Source: Minisyncoccota bacterium
GTDB lineage: Bacteria; Patescibacteriota; Minisyncoccia; UBA6257; JAGOQP01
Length of the DNA stretch: 64,000 nucleotides
Direction: 5' to 3'
Assembly (NCBI GenBank): GCA_041661795.1
Contig: JBAZTS010000002.1
Coordinates: forward strand, 36,263-100,262
The translations under genes and the position numbers were made by a program. Position 1 is the stretch's first letter, and each line of letters opens with the position of its first letter. Of this stretch, positions 5,379-58,280 are shown one piece after another. The notes beneath the pieces are model-generated. The model was not told the DNA's origin. It saw only the letters and a program-made list of their open reading frames with translations, and searched no databases.

Positions 5379-5990
5379 ATGATTGAATTAGTATTATCTT
5401 GGATTGCCAATATTGTCATAGTAATTATTAACTCTACTGGTTATTTGGGGATTTTTTTGTTAATGGCTTTAGAAAGCGCTAATATTCCAGTGCCTTCGGA
5501 AATTATTATGCCCTTTTCAGGATTTTTGGTTTTTGGGGGAAATTTTAGTTTTTGGTTAGTGGTTTTAGCAGGAACATTTGGAAATCTTTTTGGTTCTCTG
5601 GTTTCTTTCCGGTTTGCCGAGTGGATAGTGGCTAGTCGTTCCAAATTTAAATTAATATCCCATATTTTTTCAGAAAAGTTTTTGTACAAATCTCATGTTT
5701 GGTTTGAGAAGTATGGCTATTGGTCAGTATTTTTTTCCCGTCTCTTACCGGTAGCAAGGACTTTTATTTCTCTCCCAGCCGGATTGGCAAAAATGAACAT
5801 ATGGAAATTTTCCATACTAACTCTTTTCGGGTCGTTTATCTGGTCTTGGATTTTAACTTACATTGGCTTATTTTTAGGGGTTAATTGGCACACTTTGGGT
5901 AAATATTTCAGACAACTTGATTTATTGATATTAGTGATTGTACTTATTCTATTTTTTTGGTGGCTTTATAATCACAATAAACGACACTAA
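5379..5990 (+). CDS. DedA/SNARE-associated family membrane protein
   Basis: GYLGIFLLMALESANIPVPSEIIMPFSGFL core motif of DedA. Confidence 0.75.
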   Translation: MIELVLSWIANIVIVIINSTGYLGIFLLMALESANIPVPSEIIMPFSGFLVFGGNFSFWLVVLAGTFGNLFGSLVSFRFAEWIVASRSKFKLISHIFSEKFLYKSHVWFEKYGYWSVFFSRLLPVARTFISLPAGLAKMNIWKFSILTLFGSFIWSWILTYIGLFLGVNWHTLGKYFRQLDLLILVIVLILFFWWLYNHNKRH

Positions 5991-10421: not shown

Positions 10422-10450
10422 CCCCCACACTAATGGAATTAGTGTGGGGG
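10422..10450. repeat. CCCCCACACTAAT-N3-ATTAGTGTGGGGG hairpin/palindrome (family copy 1)
   Basis: 13-bp perfect inverted repeat; related copies at 15335-15361 and 37311-37369. Confidence 0.55.
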
Positions 10451-15334: not shown

Positions 15335-15361
15335 CCCCACACTAATTCTATTAGTGTGGGG
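15335..15361. repeat. CCCCACACTAAT-N3-ATTAGTGTGGGG hairpin (family copy 2)
   Basis: 12-bp inverted repeat between lepB 3' end and pilin-like gene start. Confidence 0.5.
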
Positions 15362-52668: not shown

Positions 52669-54618
52669 TTATGAAGATGCTTTTTTAATTGCCTCCATTT
52701 CTTTTTTTATTTGAGTAGCTTTTTCAAACTGTAAATTTCTCTGTGCCATTTCCAGTTTTTGCCTTAATTCTTTCAAATAATCCCTCTTAAATTCACTGCT
52801 GATATTTTTGAACTCTTCGCTTTTCTCTTCTTTATTATCTAATAATGTATTTTTTATTTCTTTTATTATGGCCTGTGGCTTTTTATTGTGTTTGCGATTA
52901 TATTCCTGCTGAATTTTTCTTCTTCTGTCCATTTCGGATATTGCTCCTTTCATTGATTTAGTAGTTTTGTCGGCATACATAATCACATGGCTGTTTAAGT
53001 TTCTGGCAGATCTTCCGGCAATTTGAATGAAAGAAGTTTTATCTCTTAAAAATCCTTCTTTGTCGGCGTCTAAAATAGCTATTAATGAAACTTCAGGTAA
53101 ATCCAATCCCTCTCTTAATAAGTTTATCCCAACCAGAACATCAAACTTTCCGGTTCTCAAATCAAAAAGAATTTTTGGTCTTTCCAATGTATCAATTTCG
53201 GAATGTAAAAACTCAGCTTTTATTTTTTTATCCTTAAAATGTTGAACTAGGGCTTCTGACAAGCGCTTGGTAAGAACAGTTACTAAAACTCTTTCTTTCC
53301 TTTTTATTCTTTCTTCTATTTCTTTTATTAAGTCAGGGATTTGATTTTCCGTGGGGCGAATCTCAGTTTCCGGGTCCAAAAGATAAGTTGGTCTGACAAT
53401 CTGTTGGGCAACCAAAGATGATTTTTCCAATTCATATTCAGCTGGGGTAGCCGAAGCAAACAAACATTTATTTATTTTTGAATGAAACTCGTTAAATTTA
53501 AGAGGTCGATTATCTAAGGCCGATGGTATGCGAAATCCGTGTTCTATAAGAGTTTCTTTTCTGGCTTTGTCGCCGTGATACATCCCTCTTACCTGAGGAA
53601 GAGTCATGTGGGACTCGTCTATAATCATCAAAAAATCTTTAGGAAAATAATCAATCAAAGTGAATGGGGGACTGTCTGGTTTTCTTCCCTCAAAATAACG
53701 GGAATAATTTTCAATTCCTTTACACCAGCCAACTTCAGATATCAAAGCCATATCATAATTAGTCCTTCTCTTGAGACGCTCGGCTTCTATCATTTTTCCT
53801 CTTTCCTGAAGTTTTTTAACTTGTTCTTCCAAATCCAAACGTATATTGGATATGGCTACTTGTCTTACACTCTCTTCCGATGACCAGAATTTTGCCGGAA
53901 ATAAATTAATTTCTTTTATATCTTTACTTTTTCCAAACGGCGCTTCCATTTCCACTATTTTCTCAATTGATTCGTGGTTTATCTTAAATCTGTATAAAAT
54001 ATCTCCTCCCGGGGGCCAAACATCTATAAACTCGGCCCTCTGTCTAAAATTTCCTCTCCAAAAACCAAATTCGTTTCTCTCAAACTGTAAAGTTAGTAAT
54101 TTTTTTAGAAGTTCTCTTTTAGTTGTTTTTTGACCCACTTTTATTTTTAAAGAAAGATTTTTGTATGCCTCTGGAGAACCCAAATTATAAATACAGGAAA
54201 CAGAAGCCACGATTATGGTGTTTGGATTTTTTAAAACTGATTGGACGGCCGCGTGTCTTAGTTTGTCTATCTCTTCATTAATTTGAACTTCCTTTTCTAT
54301 ATAAGTATCGGATGTGGGTAAGTAGGCCTCTGGTTGGTAGTAGTCGTAGTAGGAAACAAAATAATGGACATTGTCTTTAGGAAATATCATTTTAAATTCT
54401 TCATAAAGCTGGGCGGCTAAAGTTTTGTTATGGGAAATAACTAAGGTGGGCTTGTTAAGTGCCTGAATGGTGTGGGCCATAGTAAACGTTTTACCGCTTC
54501 CGGTAACTCCCAAAAGTGTCTGGAATTTATTGTTTTTACGGAACCCAGAAACTATCTGTTTTATAGCTTTGGGTTGATCGCCAGCTGGCTTTAGTTTTTT
54601 TGATATATTAAATGGCAT
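52669..54618 (-). CDS. uvrB: Excinuclease ABC subunit B
   Basis: GVTGSGKTFTMA Walker A, YFVSYYDYYQPEAY beta-hairpin, helicase motifs, C-terminal UVR coiled-coil. Confidence 0.95.
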   Translation of the reverse strand: MPFNISKKLKPAGDQPKAIKQIVSGFRKNNKFQTLLGVTGSGKTFTMAHTIQALNKPTLVISHNKTLAAQLYEEFKMIFPKDNVHYFVSYYDYYQPEAYLPTSDTYIEKEVQINEEIDKLRHAAVQSVLKNPNTIIVASVSCIYNLGSPEAYKNLSLKIKVGQKTTKRELLKKLLTLQFERNEFGFWRGNFRQRAEFIDVWPPGGDILYRFKINHESIEKIVEMEAPFGKSKDIKEINLFPAKFWSSEESVRQVAISNIRLDLEEQVKKLQERGKMIEAERLKRRTNYDMALISEVGWCKGIENYSRYFEGRKPDSPPFTLIDYFPKDFLMIIDESHMTLPQVRGMYHGDKARKETLIEHGFRIPSALDNRPLKFNEFHSKINKCLFASATPAEYELEKSSLVAQQIVRPTYLLDPETEIRPTENQIPDLIKEIEERIKRKERVLVTVLTKRLSEALVQHFKDKKIKAEFLHSEIDTLERPKILFDLRTGKFDVLVGINLLREGLDLPEVSLIAILDADKEGFLRDKTSFIQIAGRSARNLNSHVIMYADKTTKSMKGAISEMDRRRKIQQEYNRKHNKKPQAIIKEIKNTLLDNKEEKSEEFKNISSEFKRDYLKELRQKLEMAQRNLQFEKATQIKKEMEAIKKASS

Positions 54619-54871: not shown

Positions 54872-54962
54872 CAAAACAAGTTTCGAAACCGCTTCACTGC
54901 CGTGAACAACACTACAGAAAGAGCGGTCGGAGCACTGCTCTTTCACAGAAAGGGGAACTTCG

Positions 54963-55361
54963 ATGAGTGGGATCGCTTGGTTTTTCGAGGTGTTCGCTCT
55001 GCTGTTTTTCGTGGGGACTCTGGGCGTTGCTTTCATCGGACGCCGCATCCTCAAGGCGGAGCAGGAGTCGTCGGTTCTGATGTCTTTCCTCCAGATCTGC
55101 AGTGGAGCGCTCTTCATCTTCTACGTTTTCGGACTGGGTCAACTCATGGCTCTGTCTGGACTGGAAGGTGCAAGGGCGCCCCGGTGGCTGATTCCGGGCA
55201 CCTACATCACTCTCACCATCTTCAGCGCGTTGACTCGGCTGGCTCTTCCAAGGTGGGGCAGTGACAACAAAGCGATGCAACTCTGGAGTGTCGTCAGCGT
55301 CCTGACGTTCCTACTCGGCACGTTCTGCCTCGGGGCGTACTCGTCCAACTACTTCGAGTAG
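54963..55361 (+). CDS. GC-anomalous (foreign-looking) 4-TM membrane protein, unknown function
   Basis: 132 aa, GC3-rich codons in an AT-rich genome, AGGGGA RBS, own terminator. Confidence 0.6.
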   Translation: MSGIAWFFEVFALLFFVGTLGVAFIGRRILKAEQESSVLMSFLQICSGALFIFYVFGLGQLMALSGLEGARAPRWLIPGTYITLTIFSALTRLALPRWGSDNKAMQLWSVVSVLTFLLGTFCLGAYSSNYFE

Positions 55362-55385
55362 GTCTCCTTCTTCAGCTCTTCAACT

Positions 55386-55421
55386 GGCGGCGTCTCTCAC
55401 GAGGCGCCGCACTGCTTTTTA
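55386..55421. terminator. Bidirectional terminator (gcggcgtctc tcac gaggcgccgc + T-run)
   Basis: GC stem between GC-rich gene and uvrC 3' end. Confidence 0.6.
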
Positions 55422-55467
55422 TATGGTTATAAAATTTATATAAATTTCCCCGTCAATATAAATCCGC

Positions 55468-56607
55468 TTAATCGGTATATGTCCGTGACCGACGTAGTCG
55501 GTGGTATCGTATAGCAAATCTGTGGGCTTCGTTTCTTAACGAAAGTAATGTATTTTTAACATCTTCGGGGATTTGGCTCAAGCTGATAGGGGATTTTGAA
55601 TAGGGACTGTAAATCAATCCTTTTGTTTGTGATCTTTTATATTTCTTGCCAACATCGTTAATTAACTTACCATTACAATTAGAACGATCGTTGTAATTGT
55701 AATGGTGTGGATTATTACCCACAGATTGCAATTTGCCCACGTTTAGTTTTGCTAGAGCTATCATCGGAATCTTAATTGTTTTGAGTTGTGAGATTTGTGA
55801 TTTTCCTCCGTCAATGATAATTAAATCCGGATATTTCCATTCTTTGTGGTTAAGGCGTCTTTCTATAATTTCTTTTATTGAAGCCGGGTCATTGGCTCCT
55901 TTTATCGTTTTTATTTTAAATTTTCTGTAAAGATTTTTATTAGGTTTATTTCCGATAAACGTTACCATTGAGCCAACTGACAAACTACCTTGGGTATTGG
56001 AAATGTCGTAGCACTCAATATGTGTTTTTTCTCCATTATATAAACGAAGAAAAGTTTTTAATCCATTAACCACCTGGATGTATTTTTTTACTTCGATATT
56101 ATGAGCGGAACATAACCCTAAGTGATAATACAAGCACGGCTTTTCCGGTTTATTTTTACATGTGCGATAGGGGAATATTCTTCTGATTATCAATAAGAGA
56201 TGCTTAATCTCTTTTGCGTCTACAAACGGGCCAACAAAATCGGCTTTAAATTTTTTTGTTTGGTGTGTTAAAAGCACTCTGGGGTACTTTTCGTCGGTAA
56301 AAGCTATATACAAAAAATCCTTGTCATCTTTAAGTTCAATGTTATATTTTGGCTGATACTGTCTAACTAATTTTCTTTCTAAAATCAAGGCGTCTTTTTC
56401 AGATGGGGTTTCTATAAAATCTAAGTCAGCTACTTGTTTGTAAAAATTAATAGAAGCATTCTCTTGTCTAGAAAAATGCGATTCTATTCTCTTTTTTATA
56501 TTAATAGCTTTTCCGATATACAAAATCTTCTCATTCTTATCTTTGAAAATATATACTCCCGGTTTCTTAGGAAGTGCTTTTATCTTATTCTTCAGGATTG
56601 TTTTCAC
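55468..56607 (-). CDS. uvrC: Excinuclease ABC subunit C, short form lacking C-terminal (HhH)2 region; GTG start; contains in-frame palindrome insertion
   Basis: GIY-YIG PGVYIFKDKNEKILYIGKA, UvrC Cys-region, RNEAHRFAIRYHR motif near C-terminus; 379 aa vs ~600 typical. Confidence 0.8.
   Translation of the reverse strand: MKTILKNKIKALPKKPGVYIFKDKNEKILYIGKAINIKKRIESHFSRQENASINFYKQVADLDFIETPSEKDALILERKLVRQYQPKYNIELKDDKDFLYIAFTDEKYPRVLLTHQTKKFKADFVGPFVDAKEIKHLLLIIRRIFPYRTCKNKPEKPCLYYHLGLCSAHNIEVKKYIQVVNGLKTFLRLYNGEKTHIECYDISNTQGSLSVGSMVTFIGNKPNKNLYRKFKIKTIKGANDPASIKEIIERRLNHKEWKYPDLIIIDGGKSQISQLKTIKIPMIALAKLNVGKLQSVGNNPHHYNYNDRSNCNGKLINDVGKKYKRSQTKGLIYSPYSKSPISLSQIPEDVKNTLLSLRNEAHRFAIRYHRLRRSRTYTD
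55670..55705. repeat. 36-bp palindrome copy 1 (CCATTACAATTAGAACGATCGTTGTAATTGTAATGG) inside uvrC coding sequence, in-frame
   Basis: One mismatch from perfect symmetry; translated as ...YNYNDRSNCNGKLIN... Confidence 0.6.
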
Positions 56608-56645
56608 TGTTTTTTTATTTTTATCCTTATCTTAATCTTAATCTA

Positions 56646-56681
56646 CCATTACATTTAGAACGATCGTTCTAAATGTAATGG
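56646..56681. repeat. 36-bp perfect palindrome copy 2 (CCATTACATTTAGAACGATCGTTCTAAATGTAATGG), 39 nt upstream of uvrC start and abutting PaaX-like gene stop
   Basis: Perfect symmetry with symmetric A/T change relative to copy 3. Confidence 0.6.
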
Positions 56682-56684
56682 TGG

Positions 56685-57245
56685 CTAGATTTTCTTTATA
56701 GTCCCCATTTTTCCTATTTCCAATATCTCCACGTATTCGTTTATTCTCATTTTTTCTAAATCTTCCACAAACTTTTTAGGAATTTTTATTTTTCCTATCC
56801 AGACACTTTTTTGCAACATTTCAAATCCAATATTCTTTACAGCTGATCTTAACCAAGCCCTCTTCCTTTTAAATTTTTCCGGAACATCAAAAGCTATCAA
56901 AATAACATTGTTTCCGGCTTCTTTCTTATAATCTAAAGCTGGAGATTGATTATTGGATACCCGGTTAATAAGTTTTTTGGCTTTTTTAGTAATCTTGATA
57001 ATCAACCCCTCTTTTTGTTCTATGAGTCCGTCTTTCTTAAGACGATAAATCATTACCCTATATCTGTTTCTTATTTTTTCTTTCTCTGTTTTGATAGTCT
57101 CATTTTTAGTGCCGATTCTATTTAAATTGTCTCTTAATATAGACGTTGAGCCCCAAGAGAATAAAAACGCTTCAAAAGCATTAGAGTATGTTTGTCTATC
57201 TACATTATTTAGAAAACTTATTGTTTCTCTATTTCTTGCCCTCAT
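56685..57245 (-). CDS. PaaX-like transcriptional regulator (wHTH + PaaX middle-domain-like fold)
   Basis: RLKKDGLIEQKEG wHTH; VILIAFDVPEKFKRKRAWLRSAVKNIGFEMLQKSVWIGKIKIP matches PaaX W..LV.S.PE..R..R..LR..L...GFG.LQ.SVWI. Confidence 0.55.
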   Translation of the reverse strand: MRARNRETISFLNNVDRQTYSNAFEAFLFSWGSTSILRDNLNRIGTKNETIKTEKEKIRNRYRVMIYRLKKDGLIEQKEGLIIKITKKAKKLINRVSNNQSPALDYKKEAGNNVILIAFDVPEKFKRKRAWLRSAVKNIGFEMLQKSVWIGKIKIPKKFVEDLEKMRINEYVEILEIGKMGTIKKI

Positions 57246-57270
57246 AACAATATTATATCATCATTTATTA

Positions 57271-57306
57271 CCATTACAATTAGAACGATCGTTCTAATTG
57301 TAATGG
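57271..57306. promoter_or_regulatory. 36-bp perfect palindrome copy 3 overlapping putative leaderless promoter (TTGTAA-N16-TATAAT) of PaaX-like gene
   Basis: CCATTACAATTAGAACGATCGTTCTAATTGTAATGG; TATAAT 6 nt before the ATG. Confidence 0.5.
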
Positions 57307-57417
57307 AGGGAGTATATATGATTAAGAATATTAAATAATTATCATAGAGTTATTATGATTATAGATTGATTTTATCGTTTTAATTAAAGAGTGCCTTATA
57401 AATTAGCACGGACCGCT

Positions 57418-57570
57418 TTATGGGCGGTCCGGGATGGGTGGAGCGGGTGCGGGCTTGACCACTTTGGCCACGAGGCCGATTAATATGGTCAGCATTGAAA
57501 CGGGTACTACGGTGGCGATGATGACGGACGATTCCACCACCACCAGAGACCACTTGACTAGGTAGTGCAT
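57418..57570 (-). CDS. GC-rich tiny membrane protein (50 aa, MHYLVKWSLVVVESSVIIATVVPVSMLTILIGLVAKVVKPAPAPPIPDRP)
   Basis: AAAGGAGG SD; overlaps upstream ORF stop; followed by hairpin cggaccgc...gcggtccg. Confidence 0.4.
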   Translation of the reverse strand: MHYLVKWSLVVVESSVIIATVVPVSMLTILIGLVAKVVKPAPAPPIPDRP

Positions 57571-57689
57571 TCAACCTCCTTTCTTCTGAGAATCTTGGTG
57601 ATCCACAGATAGAGGTTGTATCCTGTTTGAATAACGTGGGCCATCTTTTGGCCCAGTATTGTCGTCCGATGAAACGTTGTTGTAGACAT
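57558..57689 (-). CDS. GC-rich tiny protein (43 aa, MSTTTFHRTTILGQKMAHVIQTGYNLYLWITKILRRKEVECTT)
   Basis: AAAGGAGACGTG-ATG SD; same frame as C-terminal part of listed ORF 57558-57860. Confidence 0.35.
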   Translation of the reverse strand: MSTTTFHRTTILGQKMAHVIQTGYNLYLWITKILRRKEVECTT

Positions 57690-57703
57690 CACGTCTCCTT
57701 TGG

Positions 57704-57949
57704 TTAGGCGATGGCGCCGGGGTATTCTTCGGAGATCTTCTCGATCTCTTTTTCCTCTTTCTTCACTTGGTCTGTGAGCACAAGGAAGAAAAAGATGATG
57801 GCCATGATTCCCACAAGAGTGGCAAAGGCCCATGAAAAGCTCTTGGGGAGTTGGAACCATCGTGATAAGTGATATCCTCCAAAAGTGAGAATTACCACGG
57901 CCACGGTCGCTCCAACTTTACGGAGCAAGTTGAGTAGTCCCGGGAACAT
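57704..57949 (-). CDS. GC-rich small membrane protein (81 aa, 2 TM)
   Basis: AGGAGG SD 6 nt upstream; hydrophobic helices. Confidence 0.5.
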   Translation of the reverse strand: MFPGLLNLLRKVGATVAVVILTFGGYHLSRWFQLPKSFSWAFATLVGIMAIIFFFLVLTDQVKKEEKEIEKISEEYPGAIA

Positions 57950-58193
57950 TACTCTCCTCCTTTTTGGTGTACATCTTTCGAAGTTTCTCCTGTAGAGCGT
58001 TGAGCCCCGTGAAGACCAGGGCTCCGGTCAGAAACCCGATACAAGCCAACGATCCTCGGATCTCCAATCCTGGAGGCAGTGGAACTCGGTCTGCCCATAG
58101 GACCGTGAAGAAACAGGAAGCAGCAGTTGAAAGGCCAACGAAAGTGAACCAAACCACTCTTGCGATCAACTCCAGAACTTTTCCGATTTTCAT
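57918..58193 (-). CDS. GC-rich small membrane protein (91 aa, 2-3 TM)
   Basis: GGAGGA SD 8 nt upstream; hydrophobic helices. Confidence 0.5.
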   Translation of the reverse strand: MKIGKVLELIARVVWFTFVGLSTAASCFFTVLWADRVPLPPGLEIRGSLACIGFLTGALVFTGLNALQEKLRKMYTKKEESNVPGTTQLAP

Positions 58194-58280
58194 GCTCTGA
58201 TCCTCCTCTGTTTTTCACATTATAATAATCATTGAATTTTGTCCATGTTTGATTTAGAATAACCCTTTGGTTGGCATTTT

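Follow-up and report, generated by a model that had tools for sequence, protein, structure and literature searches.

We describe a 64-kb stretch of DNA from a Minisyncoccota bacterium (contig JBAZTS010000002.1, positions 36,263 to 100,262; hereafter the window), in which the gene for a PaaX-like protein is bracketed by two copies of a long palindrome and a third copy lies in-frame inside the adjacent uvrC gene. We find that this unit, made up of a palindrome, a gene for a protein with a predicted winged helix and a Cas2-like domain, and a second palindrome, is widespread in Paceibacteria and Parcubacteria, and that it combines lineage-specific arms with an invariant CGATCG center and a symmetry that is preserved where the copies differ. 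Judging from its position and conservation, the palindrome is most likely the cognate site of the PaaX-like protein. On balance we lean toward a self-contained cassette, in which a PaaX-type dimer would be paired with its own palindrome for autoregulation and the same site would also disperse at low copy number.

The palindromes of the window

With up to three mismatches allowed, the window contains a 36-bp palindrome centered on CGATCG three times and no more, where 0.00 copies are expected by chance from shuffled sequence, and a search for the half-site returns the six arms of these three copies and no others. The upstream bracket, CCATTACAATTAGAACGATCGTTCTAATTGTAATGG (57271–57306; palindromes are given without strand), is 36 bp long and perfect, with 0 mismatches; it overlaps the −35 element of the promoter of the PaaX-like gene, and 25 nt separate it from the ATG. 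The downstream bracket (56646–56681) begins 3 nt past the stop codon of the gene, with 38 nt between its end and the GTG start of uvrC. It has two mismatches relative to the upstream copy, which form a symmetric A>T/T>A pair so that the palindrome stays perfect, and it is embedded in a 42-bp palindrome with one mismatch (56643–56684). The third copy (55670–55705) carries one mismatch and is in-frame within uvrC. As single-stranded DNA, the upstream bracket is predicted to form a hairpin of −14.7 kcal/mol (z −9.0), the corresponding values for the downstream bracket and the copy within uvrC being −15.6 and −10.6 kcal/mol.

An initial annotation of this DNA had reported three copies at these coordinates, the third of them in-frame inside uvrC, and both the mismatch search and the reading frame bear this out. 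Its spacings were close, although the exact values are 25 nt and not 26 to the ATG, and 38 nt and not 39 to the uvrC GTG. Between positions 54000 and 59000 there is no Rfam match at E ≤ 1, so no structured RNA family is indicated, and the window holds no regularly spaced repeat array of the CRISPR type.

Conservation of the bracketed gene

The window was compared with ten loci from different metagenomes that encode homologues of 34–52% protein identity, which together make 11 loci and ~207 kb. With the window counted, 10 of the 11 have a long palindrome on either side of the gene. Eight of the ten other loci have CGATCG-centered brackets of 30–48 bp, most of them perfect and two with 1–3 mismatches, and another (L026) has degenerate brackets with the center CGACCG/CGGTCG, both copies of which were found by eye. 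The remaining locus belongs to a divergent 159-aa subfamily and has a different motif common to both sides of the gene. Brackets are situated 6–96 nt upstream of the start codon and 3–127 nt after the stop codon. In the ~207 kb, 18 bracket copies pass the palindrome scan, to which the two L026 copies are added, and there are only two extra copies, namely the one in uvrC and one at L024 (3991–4032).

The arms vary by locus (e.g., TCTTACATTATTATCCGA, GGTTACATCACTCACGA, TACTATCTTATCTGACGA, GTCCAGGTTATTTCACGA and CTCCTTTTACTCACGA), and the CGATCG center alone is invariant. The arms of the window, L016 and L019 have TTACA in common, and those of L020, L023 and L029 have (A)CT(A/C)TC..TCTGACG or a near variant of it. 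Protein similarity and arm similarity are weakly positively related (Mantel r 0.29, p 0.04), but we rejected this co-variation as discriminating evidence, because linked sequences co-diverge anyway. A −10-like hexamer is found between −12 and +14 nt from the gene-proximal end of the upstream palindrome in 8 of 10 loci. Together with the bracketing in 10 of 11 loci, this promoter-like element at the upstream copy supports the earlier proposal that the palindrome is the site of the PaaX-like protein.

The neighbors of the homologues include genes for a type IV pilus, LamG, ribosomal protein L25, tRNA synthetases, YchF, ScpAB, polynucleotide phosphorylase (PNPase)/S15 and a P-type ATPase. By BLASTP and Pfam the open reading frames (ORFs) flanking the different loci are mutually unrelated, and no conserved partner gene was found; nor are there any paa genes in the 11 loci. 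We rejected a CRISPR link, as there is no array in the window and no cas1 in any locus, no Cas1 family being on record for any of the 11. The unit is thus palindrome, gene, palindrome, and the palindrome ahead of uvrC is therefore an ordinary downstream bracket.

Some loci have features of their own. The extra palindrome at L024 is a perfect third copy of that locus's 42-bp palindrome. It lies between divergent genes, 6 kb away from the bracketed one, and adjoins the gene for a 311-aa protein with a C-terminal DeoR-type helix-turn-helix, which may be a second target of the regulator. Tandem repeats with units of 14, 27, 45 or 50–60 nt follow the second palindrome at L016 (6576–6911), L019 (6855–6983) and L020 (6300–6460); in several homologue loci such stretches form 250–400 bp of non-coding DNA before the next gene, and the window is without an equivalent. 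At L023 and L025 the genes for S15, an NYN-domain protein and PNPase are located upstream of the cassette, the PaaX-like proteins of the two loci being only 39% identical. At L025 a tyrosine integrase gene also lies in the interval from S15 to the cassette, and a LAGLIDADG gene is close by.

Domain structure and promoter-like element of the PaaX-like gene

The PaaX-like gene (56685–57245, minus strand) encodes 186 aa, comprising a predicted winged helix and a Cas2-like domain that matches the Pfam family PaaX_M ("PaaX central Cas2-like domain", PF20803) with an E-value of 9.6e-12 and 45.3 bits against a cut-off of 24; Pfam Cas2 is also matched, and PaaX_M is on record for all 53 of 53 homologues. 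The sole N-terminal Pfam signal is a weak match to Mrr_N. The AlphaFold model, with a predicted local distance difference test (pLDDT) score of 88, has a helical N-terminus, then a β-hairpin wing (residues 48–85) consistent with a winged helix-turn-helix, and then a ferredoxin-like domain. The top Foldseek match is E. coli PaaX (8a39; alignment of 132 columns), followed by many Cas2 structures that cover the C-terminal domain with probabilities of 0.98–0.99. With the NCBIfam Cas2 model TIGR01573 the match reaches 27.4 bits (cut-off 24.5) and is confined to profile positions 3–43. In the homologue alignment D120, P122, R129, R133, S147 and W149 are invariant and E123 is nearly so; D120, at the end of β-1, is the Asp at the Cas2 catalytic position.

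The protein terminates after the Cas2-like domain and has no Pfam match to PaaX_C, the C-terminal ligand-binding domain. For the NCBIfam PaaX equivalog TIGR02277, whose cut-off is 264.55 bits, homologues score 19.6 and 20.4, and the window protein has no match. Y1_Tnp is absent among its Pfam matches, and it has no HUH/Y1 motif. The protein is a short two-domain relative of the PaaX family: it is not PaaX proper, because it lacks the C-terminal domain and a paa context, and it is not a CRISPR Cas2, because there is neither cas1 nor an array. It belongs to a large family, with 788 clusters (50% identity; E ≤ 1e-30 to the family profile), nearly all of ~190 aa, and public records label its members "Cas2" or "PaaX", the former of which is probably a misannotation. 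A phage or defense origin was considered and rejected, since a search of IMG/VR gave no relatives, PHROG gives no match and PADLOC gives only partial Cas2 matches.

A promoter-like sequence, TTGTAA-16-(TG)TATAAT with 10 of 12 matches, is found at 57252–57279 on the minus strand, as the initial annotation had seen. Its −35 is within an arm of the upstream palindrome, and its −10 finishes 6 nt ahead of the ATG, for which reason the mRNA of the PaaX-like gene is probably leaderless.

Copies within protein-coding genes

A metagenome scan with one arm and the center of the window palindrome yields two further copies, on contigs that are otherwise unlike the window. One lies in the gene for RNase HII (rnhB) and reads SYHYILNDRSKCNGE, and the other lies in the ORF of a MurF-like Mur ligase and reads NDHYNYNDRSKCNGE; like the copy in uvrC, which on the coding strand is HHYNYNDRSNCNG, i.e., HYNYNDRSNCN(G), both are in-frame. 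The peptides of UvrC, RNase HII and the MurF-like protein conform to H-Y-N/I-Y/L-N-D-R-S-N/K-C-N-G. In the perfect palindrome, frame 1 is closed by TAA and frame 2 by TAG; only frame 3 is open, and its peptide is the hydrophobic ITIRTIVLIVM. Each of the three in-gene copies is read in frame 2 and has one asymmetric substitution that abolishes the TAG, which is replaced by TAC in the uvrC and murF copies and by TTG in the rnhB copy. In the uvrC and rnhB copies this substitution is the sole mismatch, and in the murF copy it is one of two.

The peptide encoded by the palindrome is missing from 14 of 14 UvrC orthologues, its site being a variable loop of the RNase H-like domain; in the alignment GNNP, HHYNYNDRSNCNG and KLINDVGKKYKRSQTKG of the window protein stand opposite GNP and RLSVSLKKSTKRAQTKG in P0059. 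Likewise, the corresponding segment of RNase HII is missing from 9 of 11 orthologues. From these alignments the in-gene copies are best read as insertions of a defined DNA unit, and not as local inventions or as operators that evolved in place. The initial annotation had offered as an alternative that a small hairpin element had landed in a coding region, and had called for comparison of the uvrC loop with orthologues; the outcome of that comparison, and the in-frame RNase HII and MurF-like copies in loops that orthologues lack, support this alternative. By the same evidence, the palindrome appears to be a low-copy dispersing repeat as well as a bracket.

The RNase HII contig is also found in the ENA sample of the window, and the accessions of RNase HII and of the window proteins belong to the same two series of metagenome-assembled genomes (MAGs; MFA6135895 with MFA6136084/5, and MFA6353193 with MFA6352680/1). 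The window itself is part of a 156-kb contig that belongs to a Candidatus Paceibacterota MAG. The genome thus holds at least five copies, provided that the murF contig belongs to it. Dozens of copies genome-wide, which the initial annotation had named as speaking against its proposal, are not what is found. Neither rnhB nor murF is within the window, so there is no empty site to be seen there.

A scan of a genome collection with the 18-bp core gave 14 matches, approximately the number expected by chance, and was set aside; none of the loci so obtained has a PaaX-like gene, and only one, L005, looks related. This locus (Nealsonbacteria MAG JAUWMZ010000004) has a solo 32-bp perfect palindrome, TGACAAATTAGAACGATCGTTCTAATTTGTCA, at 5383–5414, in the interval where the 3′-ends of topA and of a uracil-DNA glycosylase gene converge, with no PaaX-like gene within the 8-kb locus. 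A match on a Bacteroidota contig (L011) was rejected as a separate operator upstream of a short-chain dehydrogenase/reductase (SDR)/TetR pair, and not a related element.

Symmetry of the palindromes and possible mechanisms

When the upstream and downstream copies are compared within loci, 13 core changes are symmetric, affecting both arms, against ~4–5 that are asymmetric, and some of the asymmetric ones at L016 generate a −10 box. Despite these within-locus differences, most bracket copies stay perfect palindromes. The outermost bases are mirrored too: at L020 one copy has TTT..AAA and the other AAT..ATT, and L029 has palindromes of 48 bp and 44 bp that are both perfect and differ at their outer ends.

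Changes in both arms that keep the symmetry are what stem pairing predicts, and could suggest a protein-independent hairpin repeat, either REP-like (repetitive extragenic palindromic) or MITE-like (miniature inverted-repeat transposable element), or an RNA hairpin serving as terminator, insulator or stabilizer, with unlinked host functions moving or maintaining the palindromes. The stability of the hairpins, the solo copies (far from the gene, inside ORFs and, at L005, between convergent genes) and the location of the downstream copy 3–127 nt past the stop codon would all agree with such a repeat. We nevertheless consider it unlikely, as it leaves unexplained why, of 22 copies in roughly 207 kb, ~20 are located at the ends of genes of one family, why each protein lineage has its own arms and why the center is invariant. 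As for an RNA hairpin, there is no U-tract on the transcribed strand, and a terminator within murF, uvrC or rnhB would do harm.

Alternatively, the protein could act on the palindrome as an enzyme. A winged-helix-guided, Cas2-fold nuclease might nick or cut the CGATCG center of an extruded hairpin or cruciform and in this way keep the palindrome symmetric and occasionally seed copies of it, even in-frame in essential genes, as an analogue of REPs and their REP-associated tyrosine transposases (RAYTs). In keeping with this, cognate palindromes flank the gene and extra copies occur elsewhere, as with RAYT genes and REPs; the CGATCG center is invariant and the arms variable; the Asp that corresponds to the catalytic one of Cas2 is invariant, as are the residues around it; and the palindromes of L020, L029 and L024 differ in their outermost bases within the locus and are each perfectly symmetric. 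On the other hand, PaaX uses the same domain for dimerization, the copy number is very low (at least five), no target-site duplication can be defined, and the cassette is not visibly mobile, the gene having residual synteny (S15-NYN-PNPase at L023 and L025) and identical proteins occurring in identical contexts. We also know of no Cas2-fold protein that transposes DNA, and we regard a copying enzyme as a rather doubtful explanation.

We favor the self-contained cassette, in which a dimer of the PaaX-like protein would bind the palindrome of 36–40 bp, the two subunits meeting through their Cas2-like domains and each contacting one outer arm with its winged helix. Occupation of the upstream copy would cover the −35 and spacer of the promoter and lead to autorepression, as for PaaX at Px, and the downstream copy could be a second site and/or the 3′ hairpin of the transcript. 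In the genes for UvrC, RNase HII and the MurF-like protein, complete copies of the palindrome have entered, in-frame, segments that encode surface loops. Several points weigh against this explanation. The window protein does not match the Pfam model of the PaaX N-terminal domain, and its winged helix-turn-helix is predicted from the structure model only. The preponderance of symmetric changes goes beyond what a double-stranded operator needs and suggests that the strand pairs with itself as a hairpin or cruciform, or that one arm serves as template for the other, and the invariant center together with D120 hints at chemistry beyond binding. Regarding dispersal, the mobility of the palindrome is deduced from comparison with orthologues of 50–60% identity, and the murF contig is assigned to the window genome, probably correctly, through shared sample, GC content and palindrome only. 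Furthermore, insertion of a TAG-bearing palindrome into murF, an essential gene, fits poorly with copy-and-paste followed by repair; the murF copy may instead be derived from a copy that was already stop-free, since the TAC is common to the murF and uvrC copies.

Relation to uvrC

The uvrC gene (55468–56607, minus strand) starts with GTG and encodes 379 aa with GIY-YIG and UvrC RNase H domains (Pfam). It follows the PaaX-like gene on the minus strand, with uvrA upstream on the plus strand and uvrB further downstream. The 78 nt that separate the PaaX-like gene from uvrC gave no promoter-like site. On the transcribed strand the hairpins are not followed by a run of T/U, and the sole terminator-like call is on the antisense strand; for lack of the U-tract we rejected an intrinsic terminator. 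With no promoter-like site found in this spacer and no U-tract after the hairpin, the two genes are probably transcribed together, and uvrC would be coupled incidentally to the autoregulation of the cassette.

The gene order invites the idea, put forward in the initial annotation, that the PaaX-like protein is a dedicated, LexA-independent repressor of uvrC or of nucleotide excision repair, for which the copy within uvrC would be a second operator or a roadblock. The PaaX-like gene does lie between uvrA and uvrC-uvrB, one palindrome is 38 nt upstream of uvrC and another within it, and RNase HII, whose gene hosts another of the in-gene copies, is also a DNA-repair enzyme. However, uvr genes adjoin the cassette in none of the ten other loci, where the neighbors are mutually unrelated and none is conserved; the palindrome ahead of uvrC is the standard downstream bracket seen at other loci; uvrA and uvrB contain no copy; and the third in-gene copy is in murF, a cell-wall gene. 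We therefore consider a dedicated repair regulator very unlikely. As the cassette adjoins unrelated genes elsewhere, its link to uvrC appears to be positional, and not that of a conserved LexA-independent repair circuit. Of the interpretation given in the initial annotation, the cognate site and the hairpin element in a coding region have stood, and the dedicated repair circuit has not.

The core of the window palindrome, AGAACGATCGTTCT, could also be taken for a Gram-positive-type LexA (Cheo) box, GAAC-N4-GTTC, bound by LexA so that uvrC would be SOS-regulated. Both bracket copies contain the motif, and an identical 18-mer occurs in another Patescibacteria MAG (L010) ahead of a LexA-like gene. 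We find this reading scarcely credible and rejected it, because the motif is missing from the equivalent palindromes of other loci: GAAC/GTTC is lacking at nine of them, where the cores are TATCCGATCGGATA, CTCACGATCGTGAG, CTGACGATCGTCAG, TGACCGATCGGTCA and others. In addition, the symmetry reaches 11 nt past the 14-bp box on each side, no such box is found upstream of uvrA or uvrB, and the copy in uvrC has lost one GTTC. From the arms compared here, the resemblance to a LexA box seems to be peculiar to the lineage of the window. The 18-mer of L010, TTAGAACGATCGTTCTAA (971–988 in MAG JAFAQP010000102), is of interest in its own right: it is 6 nt upstream of a gene for a LexA-like S24 peptidase, which is followed by a Y-family DNA polymerase, and looks like a Cheo-type SOS box in a genome of the Candidate Phyla Radiation (CPR).

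At 379 aa, UvrC has the short form typical of Paceibacteria, most of its closest ~100 matches being 337–430 aa long. The short form stops right after the RNase H-like domain and has no (HhH)2, and the closest orthologues are also without a match to UVR, the UvrB-interaction domain. Two GC-rich islands (54900–55450 and 57400–58200; 50–58% GC against 36% for the genome) flank the unit of uvrC and the PaaX-like gene. They contain no publicly annotated genes, are unmatched in Rfam, Pfam and PHROG except for a weak, sub-threshold DUF3021, and are similar neither to one another nor to other loci. Their ORFs (54963–55361 on the plus strand; 57418–57570, 57704–57949 and 57918–58193 on the minus strand) are small and hydrophobic, with a GC content at third codon positions of 0.52–0.74, and look like foreign genes for small membrane proteins. 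Elsewhere in the window, a GC-clamped hairpin, CCCCACACTAAT..ATTAGTGTGGGG, occurs in two copies (10423–10449 and 15335–15361), which are probably terminators.

Comparison with known systems

E. coli PaaX binds the symmetric sequence TGATTC-N27-GAATCA, 39 bp in length, and represses its own promoter Px by occlusion (PMC9493321), which agrees with the remark in the initial annotation that E. coli PaaX binds long palindromes. The window protein resembles PaaX of E. coli and Pseudomonas (PDB 8a39 and 3l09) in its order of domains, a predicted N-terminal winged helix and then the Cas2-like central domain, and the palindromes of 36–40 bp are comparable to the 39-bp operator in length, in symmetry and, on positional evidence, in overlapping the promoter of the gene itself. 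It differs from PaaX in having no PaaX_C and no paa genes nearby, and its putative sites are perfectly palindromic over their full length, share the invariant center CGATCG and are located on both sides of the gene and also inside ORFs.

In REP/RAYT/REPIN systems, as here, a single-copy, vertically inherited gene is flanked by cognate palindromes, the repeats are lineage-specific and further copies are found elsewhere. However, RAYTs are HUH Y1 transposases and the protein described here has a predicted winged helix-turn-helix and a Cas2-like domain; there are ~5 copies instead of tens to hundreds, and these are perfect palindromes; and all three solo copies in the window genome are intragenic, whereas REPs are predominantly extragenic. 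Rickettsia palindromic elements (RPEs) are palindromes of ~100–150 bp that occur in many copies, in-frame in unrelated protein genes. The palindrome described here shares with them its in-frame presence in unrelated genes, a peptide in a surface loop and a preferred frame. It differs in its length of 36–38 bp, in its host phylum and in being tied to the gene of a specific DNA-binding protein; we know of no dedicated protein gene that is flanked by RPEs.

With Cas2 of CRISPR adaptation, the C-terminal domain has in common the ferredoxin-like fold and the conserved Asp, but the protein is a predicted winged-helix fusion, matches only the first half of Cas2 profiles and has neither cas1 nor an array for company. 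The LexA/Cheo box is comparable insofar as the 14-bp core of the window variant fits it and lies next to uvr genes, but the element is 36–38 bp and not 14 bp long, and the match is limited to the variant of the window lineage. We found no paper that joins PaaX with Cas2 or that describes palindromes within ORFs of CPR bacteria; most subscription journals were outside this search, and an earlier description is possible.

Implications

For a family of 788 clusters that has no functional context in public records, these results offer a testable, lineage-specific cognate DNA site, and the lineage-specific palindromes constitute a natural specificity series for a dimeric DNA binder with a long footprint. 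They also describe a short palindrome of perfect symmetry whose occurrence is linked to one gene and which is present in-frame in three unrelated genes, two certainly and the third probably in one small genome, and thereby a rare case in which a candidate partner protein can be named for an in-frame palindromic insertion element. The apparent repair circuit around uvrC would be an accident of position. If the PaaX-like protein is a repressor only, what we describe is a clean, conserved autoregulatory cassette, with a misannotation corrected. If, on the other hand, the protein maintains or spreads its palindrome, this would mean that a Cas2-fold domain can manipulate DNA in a setting other than CRISPR, and such a copying system could be related by descent to the part of CRISPR adaptation that handles repeats.

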